Assembly: GCF_024223415.1 (NCBI RefSeq)
Contig: NZ_CP100500.1
Reading direction: 5' to 3' (one strand)
DNA: 64,000 nt
DNA from: Escherichia coli
Lineage (GTDB): Bacteria; Pseudomonadota; Gammaproteobacteria; Enterobacterales; Enterobacteriaceae
In this document: piece by piece, positions 44,316 through 45,188 of the stretch
How positions within the stretch are numbered: the first letter of the stretch is position 1
Layout: each line of letters opens with the position of its first letter
Program-made: the position numbers and the translations under genes
The notes under the pieces: generated by a model
What the model saw: the letters and a program-made list of their open reading frames with translations, nothing else
Databases searched by the model: none
Told to the model about the DNA's origin: nothing

Positions 44316-44468
44316 TTAGTTAATCAGCTTATCAATCTCGGCAAGGGGTAAATTTGCCATCTCTGCAACGTCTTCCCGAGACATTCCTTTATTCAGAAGA
44401 CGCAGGACGAATTCTTGCCTTTCCTCCTGTCTTCCCCTCTCTTCAAACCACTGCGCCAGCGTCATCAT
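44316..44468 (-). CDS. candidate internal in-frame small ORF within yadD (RpnS-like C-terminal module, 50 aa)
   Basis: Strong internal SD-like GGGAGGGGAG (44472..44480, minus strand) 3-4 nt before tandem ATG ATG (44468..44463); product MMTLAQWFEERGRQEERQEFVLRLLNKGMSREDVAEMANLPLAEIDKLIN. Confidence 0.4.
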   Translation of the reverse strand: MMTLAQWFEERGRQEERQEFVLRLLNKGMSREDVAEMANLPLAEIDKLIN

Positions 44469-45188
44469 AGACTCCCCTCCCGTTTCCCTGTCTCTCAGCA
44501 CACCATAAAACAAATCCGCTTGTTCAGTATGACCGCGTTGCAGCATATAGTTTTGCATGGCAACTAACTGACTTCCGCTAGTGTACCCTTCGTCAATCAG
44601 CGTGACCAGTTGCTCCAGCAATAACATTAAGTCGCGCTGGCGAATATGCTTTTGCAGTAGTTCGAGAATCGCAATCCGCCGATGTTGCATGATTTCGTCA
44701 TCCGGTGTGATAGTGATATCCACCAGCGGAAAAGGACTGTTATAGACGCGTCGCGCCAGCTCCGGCGAGTAAAACATATCAAACCAGCACATTGAGAGCG
44801 GATAAGGTGTGGTCTCGCCCTGATAAAACAGTATCGGCACCACCAGCGGCAGCTTATCGTGATCCGCCTCCAGATGCCGGTGCATGGCAGCAATAGAATA
44901 ACGCATCATGCGAAAGGCCATTTTCTTATCCGGCTTGCTTTGGTGTTCAATCACAACATGCAGATAACCGGGATTGCCCTGCATTTGCACGGAATAGAGC
45001 ACGTCCGTGCTGTGTCCTTTCAGGCTCTCTTCAATGAAACTCCCCGACTCTAAATGAAGCGTATTGAGGTCACAAAGTTCGCGTAATTCCACTGGCAAAT
45101 GTATCTCCAGAAAGTCGCGAGCCGTCTCCGCATGCATTAAAAATTGTTTAAATACCGCGTCATGCGGTGTAGTACTCGGTGCATCCAT
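44316..45188 (-). CDS. yadD: Rpn-family recombination-promoting nuclease / putative transposase (PD-(D/E)XK, YhgA-like)
   Basis: 290-aa ORF MDAPSTTPHDAVFKQFLMHAETARDFLEIHLPVELRELCDLNTLHLESGSFIEE...; conserved position between panC and panD; K-12 YadD is about 300 aa by my recollection. Confidence 0.88.
   Translation of the reverse strand: MDAPSTTPHDAVFKQFLMHAETARDFLEIHLPVELRELCDLNTLHLESGSFIEESLKGHSTDVLYSVQMQGNPGYLHVVIEHQSKPDKKMAFRMMRYSIAAMHRHLEADHDKLPLVVPILFYQGETTPYPLSMCWFDMFYSPELARRVYNSPFPLVDITITPDDEIMQHRRIAILELLQKHIRQRDLMLLLEQLVTLIDEGYTSGSQLVAMQNYMLQRGHTEQADLFYGVLRDRETGGESMMTLAQWFEERGRQEERQEFVLRLLNKGMSREDVAEMANLPLAEIDKLIN

Follow-up and report, generated by a model that had tools for sequence, protein, structure and literature searches.

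A strong Shine–Dalgarno (SD) element followed by tandem in-frame ATG codons, inside the rpnC (yadD) gene of Escherichia coli, almost certainly drives separate translation of a 50-residue C-terminal protein. The DNA analyzed, a 64,000-nt stretch of contig NZ_CP100500.1 (hereafter the window), very probably carries an allele of the E. coli rpnC gene-within-gene toxin–antitoxin system, with the internal SD and ATG giving RpnC_S. A first-pass annotation of the window had predicted a separately translated C-terminal small protein at this site, and published experiments in E. coli K-12, whose SD/ATG-ATG segment is identical to that of the window, support the prediction. The nested RpnC_S is the already published "antitoxin within a toxin gene". 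Nothing about it is mechanistically new for rpnC, and the window represents a new allele of a characterized system.

The rpnC locus and its internal start site

The gene and the elements of its internal start are as follows.

44316..45188, minus strand: rpnC (yadD), full-length ORF for RpnC_L (290 aa), with an N-terminal YhgA-like PD-(D/E)XK nuclease domain (residues 7–207) and a C-terminal small domain
44472..44481, minus strand: internal SD, GGGAGGGGAG, encoded by Thr-Gly-Gly-Glu codons; –10.8 kcal/mol, the top-ranked SD-like position of the gene and the same in K-12
44471..44469, minus strand: spacer TCT (3 nt) between GGGAGGGGAG and the first ATG
44463..44468, minus strand: internal translation initiation site (iTIS), ATG ATG in tandem and in frame, at codon 241 of 290; of the two, the first (44468..44466) is the conserved one

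The gene is flanked by panD (45462..45842, plus strand) and panC (43091..43942, plus strand), in panD-rpnC-panC synteny. A 99.9%-identical RefSeq locus is annotated as rpnC, "recombination-promoting nuclease RpnC"; yadD is the older name of the gene. Residues 7–207 of RpnC_L match Pfam Transposase_31 (E = 2.2e-87), indicating that the YhgA-like nuclease domain is present, and the whole protein scores 268.8 bits against NCBIfam TIGR01784 (Rpn family; cut-off 52.1). When searched with PADLOC-DB v2.0, which has no Rpn model, RpnC_L matched no defence-system model and the small proteins gave marginal RmrA matches only; defence activity among Rpn proteins has been published solely for plasmid-borne RpnP2. 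An Rfam search of 43900..45400 returned no match, which rules out a known RNA element as an alternative.

On the minus strand, in the rpnC frame, the site reads GAA ACG GGA GGG GAG TCT ATG ATG ACG CTG. The GGAGG core (44480..44476) lies 7 nt from the first ATG (ATG1), and GGAG (44475..44472) lies 6 nt from the second (ATG2). An excellent SD just before an in-frame ATG ATG at 44468..44463 had been described in the first-pass annotation, and every element of that description was borne out. SD strength was scored by pairing positions –18 to –4 with the 16S anti-SD for every ATG, GTG and TTG on both strands of the 64-kb window. With an anti-SD duplex of –10.8 kcal/mol, both internal ATGs of rpnC rank 10–11 among the 5,914 start triplets, which places them in the top 0.2% for the window. 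When only internal in-frame ATGs are considered (n = 450, from 49 long non-shadow ORFs), the rpnC pair ranks 1–2. An SD this strong is thus unusual inside an ORF, as had been claimed. At the primary start of rpnC (45188, minus strand), by comparison, the SD is weak (–3.5 kcal/mol; rank 1106 of 5,914). This difference fits the published excess of RpnS over RpnL.

A strict promoter scan found no consensus sigma-70 promoter inside rpnC. Under permissive settings, only weak candidates emerged there, among them TGGTCA-17-TACACT (–10 element at 44585). For K-12 RpnS, an internal transcription start site (TSS) that gives a short, more abundant transcript has been reported from dRNA-seq, cited by Zhong et al. 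(PNAS 2023, PMC10400941).

The window contains one other strong internal in-frame SD-start, and only one. It lies at 9384..9387 (minus strand), within an ORF for a CdaR/SdaR-like regulator (8635..9810, minus strand), has the form GGGAGGA-N6-GTG ATG (–10.3 kcal/mol), and would yield a 249-aa C-terminal fragment. This cdaR-like gene is absent from the main text of Meydan et al. 2019 (bioRxiv 10.1101/520783).

An SD-like run in rpnC could in principle be incidental to the coding of Gly-Gly-Glu beside two Met residues, causing at most a pause in elongation and no initiation. GGN and GAG codons are intrinsically SD-like, and part of the internal SD is predicted to be base-paired in a 100-nt local fold computed without a shuffle control. 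The site in the cdaR-like ORF, similarly strong and unmentioned by Meydan et al. in their main text, also speaks for such a coincidence. Against it stand the evolutionary pattern of the site and the K-12 data, described below.

The internal start is conserved at the nucleotide level

The K-12 rpnC sequence matches that of the window over the whole SD/ATG-ATG neighbourhood (>50 nt), and the alleles diverge only from the linker onward. Of 5,426 complete E. coli genomes, 5,089 contain a 55-nt segment with the site at its centre, and in 3,598 the identity is at least 99%. Twenty-four E. coli loci were inspected closely. In 23 of these, neither the core GGGAGGG nor the ATG-ATG had changed, and the sole variation was GAG to AAG or CAG; the exception is L021, where rpnC is destroyed by an IS3 element.

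We also compared 11 orthologous genes (57–100% amino acid identity) from Escherichia, Salmonella, Klebsiella, Citrobacter, Superficieibacter, Pseudocitrobacter and an Enterobacteriaceae genome. Nine of these are more distant (57–88%), and most of the nine occupy the syntenic position between panD and panC. In 10 of the 11, the aligned ATG follows a strong SD (–8.5 to –11.4 kcal/mol), and in 8 of those orthologs the aligned SD ties as the best SD-like position of the entire gene. The residues encoded by the SD region vary (GGES, QGES, QEES, KEKT, QGGS, QGEA), yet the purine core of the SD is kept. Retention of the core while the encoded residues differ suggests that it is the nucleotide sequence, more than the protein, that is under selection here. 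Enhanced synonymous-site conservation in yadD has been published. An incidental SD accounts poorly for a pattern in which nucleotides are kept, amino acids change, and the Met column is conserved.

The ortholog alignment also bears on which ATG is used. Initiation at ATG2 (44465) would give a 49-aa product, and both codons might be used. The 3'-most GGAG lies only 3 nt from ATG1 and 6 nt from ATG2, and some relatives have Val-Met or a single Met right before Thr (VMTIA, LMTIA), both of which speak for ATG2. However, the spacing of 7 nt between the GGAGG core and ATG1 is near optimal. Moreover, the column aligned with ATG1 is ATG in 10 of 11 orthologs, whereas the second codon is ATG, CAG, GAA or GGG. 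Use of ATG2, alone or together with ATG1, is therefore rather unlikely. The choice changes the product by one residue and leaves the biology unaltered.

The sole exception among the 11 orthologs is that of Pseudocitrobacter cyperus (P0095, locus L008), which reads AAA GAG AAA AAG CTG at codon 241, with no ATG and an SD energy of –2.9 kcal/mol. From this ortholog, RpnS may no longer be expressed, or it may be made by some other mechanism.

A different kind of change is seen in E. coli strain MLI106K3 (L013), where a GAA to TAA substitution six codons upstream of the iTIS truncates RpnC_L. The SD, the ATG-ATG and the S ORF are intact, such that the nested pair is naturally split into two adjacent ORFs, an observation in favour of the nested-gene reading. 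PGAP flags the gene with "internal stop".

Published K-12 data point to internal initiation as the probable source of the small protein

Meydan et al. (2019, bioRxiv 10.1101/520783), who first mapped the iTIS, reported Ribo-RET peaks, apparent major start sites, in each of the five rpn genes of K-12. Zhong et al. (PNAS 2023, PMC10400941) presented Onc112/retapamulin signal for K-12 rpnC and detected chromosomally SPA-tagged RpnC_S in K-12. Initiation profiling and a search for a tagged small product, the checks suggested along with the original prediction, had thus already been published for this organism, with both the peaks and SPA-tagged RpnC_S reported. The main text of the preprint of Weaver et al. 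mentions neither yadD nor rpnC. Because the K-12 data were obtained on a sequence identical to that of the window, they largely refute the notion that the SD-like run is incidental, and we regard that notion as very improbable.

Zhong et al. (2023, PMC10400941) further established that RpnS proteins are antitoxins of the toxic RpnL nucleases and that RpnS levels exceed those of RpnL. In an SOS assay, K-12 RpnC_S blocks RpnC_L (their Figure 4D). For RpnC, one 4-aa repeat added to either S or L abolishes neutralization unless both carry it (Zhong et al. 2023, PMC10400941). Such repeats are strain-variable and begin 8–20 residues past the initiating Met in Rpn small proteins. The view that the site fits the intragenic small-protein model of Rpn genes is upheld by this RpnL/RpnS gene-within-gene architecture together with the K-12 data.

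A small C-terminal species could also arise by proteolysis of RpnC_L. The mutants with a disrupted RBS/iTIS that are described in the main text of Zhong et al. (2023, PMC10400941) concern RpnA, RpnB, RpnP2 and a C. difficile gene; RpnC is not explicitly named, and no such mutant abolishing the small band is described there for RpnC, which leaves some room for processing. Yet the peaks reported in rpnC come from retapamulin and Onc112, which arrest ribosomes solely at initiation. With RpnA and the C. difficile homolog, the small protein was lost when the RBS/iTIS was mutated (Zhong et al. 2023, PMC10400941). The RpnS excess and the reported internal TSS also count against proteolysis, and the conserved SD has no role in a proteolytic model. 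Proteolysis is thus an extremely improbable source of the small protein, and internal initiation is the reading retained here.

The predicted 50-residue product and its variable linker

Two further features define the product.

44316..44468, minus strand: rpnC_S, an ORF of 50 codons plus stop nested in rpnC, MMTLAQWFEERGRQEERQEFVLRLLNKGMSREDVAEMANLPLAEIDKLIN; predicted to encode the antitoxin of RpnC_L, from its translation, a profile match to 7TH0 and an AF2 model
44403..44438, minus strand: hypervariable linker of 4-aa repeats, residues 11–22 of RpnC_S, RGRQEERQEFVL, from alignments

Translation from the first ATG gave exactly the 50 residues that had been predicted. The linker, between WFEE and RLLNKGMS, is 12 aa in the window, the shortest class seen, compared with 20 aa in K-12 and as many as 40 aa in other strains. 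Across E. coli alleles (12 to 40 aa), it is built of KGIE- or RQEV-type units, and the variable part begins at residue 11 of S. The short linker accounts for the 50-aa S of the window versus the 60-aa S of K-12. The window allele is rare, with identity of at least 99% in 7 of 5,482 matching records.

A profile built from an alignment of 25 tail domains matched PDB entry 7TH0, a 49-residue RpnA chain, with E = 5.8e-9. The match begins at chain residue 1, so the crystallized small protein starts at a position homologous to the internal Met of the window. That an RpnA small protein was crystallized as an independent 49-residue chain, aligning from the same position, is further evidence against an SD without function. 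A single-sequence phmmer search of PDB with the 50-aa product missed RpnA_S, the best match being a designed repeat protein. In the profile search, designed PPR/helical-repeat proteins outscored 7TH0; these were disregarded, as their scores are summed over repeats.

The AF2 model of RpnC_S, computed with the same tail alignment, has helices at residues 4–26, 31–37 and 42–49 (mean pLDDT 80). A Foldseek search of PDB with this very short query gave only generic HTH domains, all with E > 0.4, and 7TH0 was not among the top matches. These weak HTH matches fit the Pfam name HTH_Rpn_C and the HHpred remark in Zhong et al. (2023), although they are not discriminating. The Pfam scan of the small domain of the window gave no match to PF27070 (HTH_Rpn_C). 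Precomputed PF27070 assignments exist for many diverged homologs; among the hits with identity of at least 83%, they are limited to P0025 and P0027. DUF4351 (PF14261) matched the RpnC tail with E = 0.04 and did not match the 69-aa protein encoded by the neighbouring copy of the small domain.

A free-standing copy of the small domain lies downstream of rpnC

This copy and the spacer before it have the following layout.

44038..44247, minus strand: rpnC_Ss, second copy of the RpnC small domain (69 aa), with its own ATG and SD, a novel 11-residue N-terminus (MEIKTRRETRQ) and a 20-aa linker
44248..44315, minus strand: 68-nt spacer from the rpnC stop to rpnC_Ss, in which CCAGATAATT occurs twice (44292..44283, 44267..44258), followed by the Ss SD, AAGGGA (44257..44252)

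The start of rpnC_Ss has a moderate SD, AAGGGA (–5.3 kcal/mol; rank 456 of 5,914). DNA similarity between rpnC and the Ss locus begins just past the ATG-ATG, and protein homology extends from TLAQWFEE onward. Neither the internal SD nor the internal start is therefore part of the duplicated segment; in their place, Ss uses a new ATG, located 9 codons upstream. This agrees with the first-pass annotation, which held that the downstream copy lacks the Met-Met and has its own start 10 codons further upstream: R-Q takes the place of Met-Met, and the new start is 9 codons from the first Met and 10 from the second. The same annotation proposed that the two copies would be expressed by different mechanisms. 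The distinction holds insofar as one ORF is nested and the other free-standing; it does not hold for initiation itself, which is SD-led in both cases.

In the spacer between rpnC and rpnC_Ss, the 10-nt sequence CCAGATAATT occurs twice as a direct repeat, and the second copy abuts the Ss SD. The repeat may be the scar of a duplication or insertion that created Ss. A terminator scan of this spacer found no terminator-like hairpin.

The free-standing copy is carried by 1,555 of the 5,426 complete E. coli genomes, always on the chromosome. Its annotation by PGAP is inconsistent. In some strains it is called an "RpnC/YadD family protein" from the same ATG. In others it is a pseudogene "missing N-terminus", with a start 30 nt downstream of the ATG: L002 (2584-2763; AR_0085), L012, L016, L020, L023 and L024. 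The pseudogene call includes an allele identical to that of the window. IS3-family insertions have hit either copy: rpnC is destroyed and Ss intact in L021, and Ss is interrupted and rpnC intact in L022.

The linkers of RpnC_S and RpnC_Ss do not match

We compared the two copies in 22 E. coli genomes in which both are intact (the window; L002, L012–L020 and L023–L033), representing 12 distinct combinations; this is a small sample, not corrected for phylogeny. The Ss linker was never equal in length to that of the resident S (0 of 22 genomes), with differences of 6–24 aa. The repeat type also differs across these genomes, being KGFQ or KGYQ in Ss versus RQEV or KGIE in the resident S. Given this mismatch in length, and given that one extra repeat abolishes neutralization in K-12, Ss probably does not serve as a mere reserve antitoxin against the resident RpnC_L. 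The rpnC_Ss product may thus be something other than a redundant antitoxin. The main text of Zhong et al. (2023, PMC10400941) does not address the S/Ss linker mismatch.

The full-length RpnC alleles P0002 and P0011 end in an Ss-type C-terminus, ...TTLPLTEIDKLINSN, with close variants in P0007 and P0048. Such tails suggest recombination or fusion of rpnC with rpnC_Ss, by which Ss could donate a new tail. Fusion events between rpnC and rpnC_Ss are mentioned in Zhong et al. (2023, PMC10400941). Ss could conceivably be a non-cognate specificity cassette, acting either as a donor for switching of toxin–antitoxin specificity (cf. hsdS cassettes) or as an antitoxin against incoming or foreign Rpn toxins. 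We offer this idea tentatively, as one with perhaps modest odds of being right.

A toxin gene with a predicted antitoxin inside

How the nested pair would work can be outlined from these observations and the published work. From the weak 5' start (45188), ribosomes would translate the 290-aa nuclease RpnC_L. Independent initiation at the strong internal SD and ATG (44468), probably far more frequent, would yield the 50-aa RpnC_S; a short internal transcript reportedly serves this start in K-12. The polypeptide RpnC_S is identical to the C-terminal domain of RpnC_L, with its three helices. If it behaves like RpnA_S and K-12 RpnC_S, it would bind this domain of RpnC_L via its long first helix, and the association is expected to block the DNA-damaging activity of the toxin. 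The length of the 4-aa-repeat linker in the first helix would set which S neutralizes which L.

The initiation peaks, the tagged protein, the SOS block and the repeat-number specificity have been published for the K-12 allele, whose iTIS is identical to that of the window. On this analogy, we infer that the 50-aa product is made from the window allele and would neutralize its own RpnC_L.

The signature of the site (a top-ranked SD with an in-frame ATG, in the last fifth of the ORF, conserved at the nucleotide level) is recognizable and specific. Indeed, this gene-within-gene case, an antitoxin inside the frame of its toxin, was rediscovered independently from sequence alone. Two modest additions emerge from the analysis. 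One is a rare minimal-repeat allele, with an S protein of 50 aa. The other is the S/Ss linker mismatch in all 22 genomes, which raises the question of what purpose Ss serves.

Comparison with known systems

The closest relative is the RpnC_L/RpnC_S pair of K-12. Like the window, K-12 has the gene in the same locus (panD-rpnC-panC), with an identical SD/ATG-ATG and a nested ORF, and the proteins share 97% amino acid identity overall. The linker of the window is shorter than that of K-12 by 8 aa, or two 4-aa units (12 versus 20), and S is 50 rather than 60 aa. The C-terminus also differs, ending in ...DKLIN in the window and ...DKVINLI in K-12. Finally, the window has a free-standing rpnC_Ss after rpnC, whereas K-12 lacks rpnC_Ss.

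Free-standing copies of this kind, rpnC_Ss and rpnE_Ss (ypaA), are shown in Figure 2I of Zhong et al. (2023), and the copy at 44038..44247 (minus strand) of the window is one of them, on the same strand as rpnC and directly downstream. Among free-standing Ss copies, production has been shown only for YpaA/RpnE_Ss (Zhong et al. 2023, PMC10400941).

The predicted fold of RpnC_S, a long helix followed by two short ones, resembles the published three-helix bundle of RpnA_S (PDB 7TH0). The crystal structure of RpnA_S was reported by Zhong et al. (2023, PMC10400941), and 7TH0 is a 49-residue chain of that size.

Beyond the Rpn family, the isoforms of IF2 (infB), ArcB-C and Cas10d/Cas11d likewise involve SD-led, in-frame internal initiation that yields an independent C-terminal protein. 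In those three cases the products are complementary, whereas in Rpn the small product antagonizes the large one.
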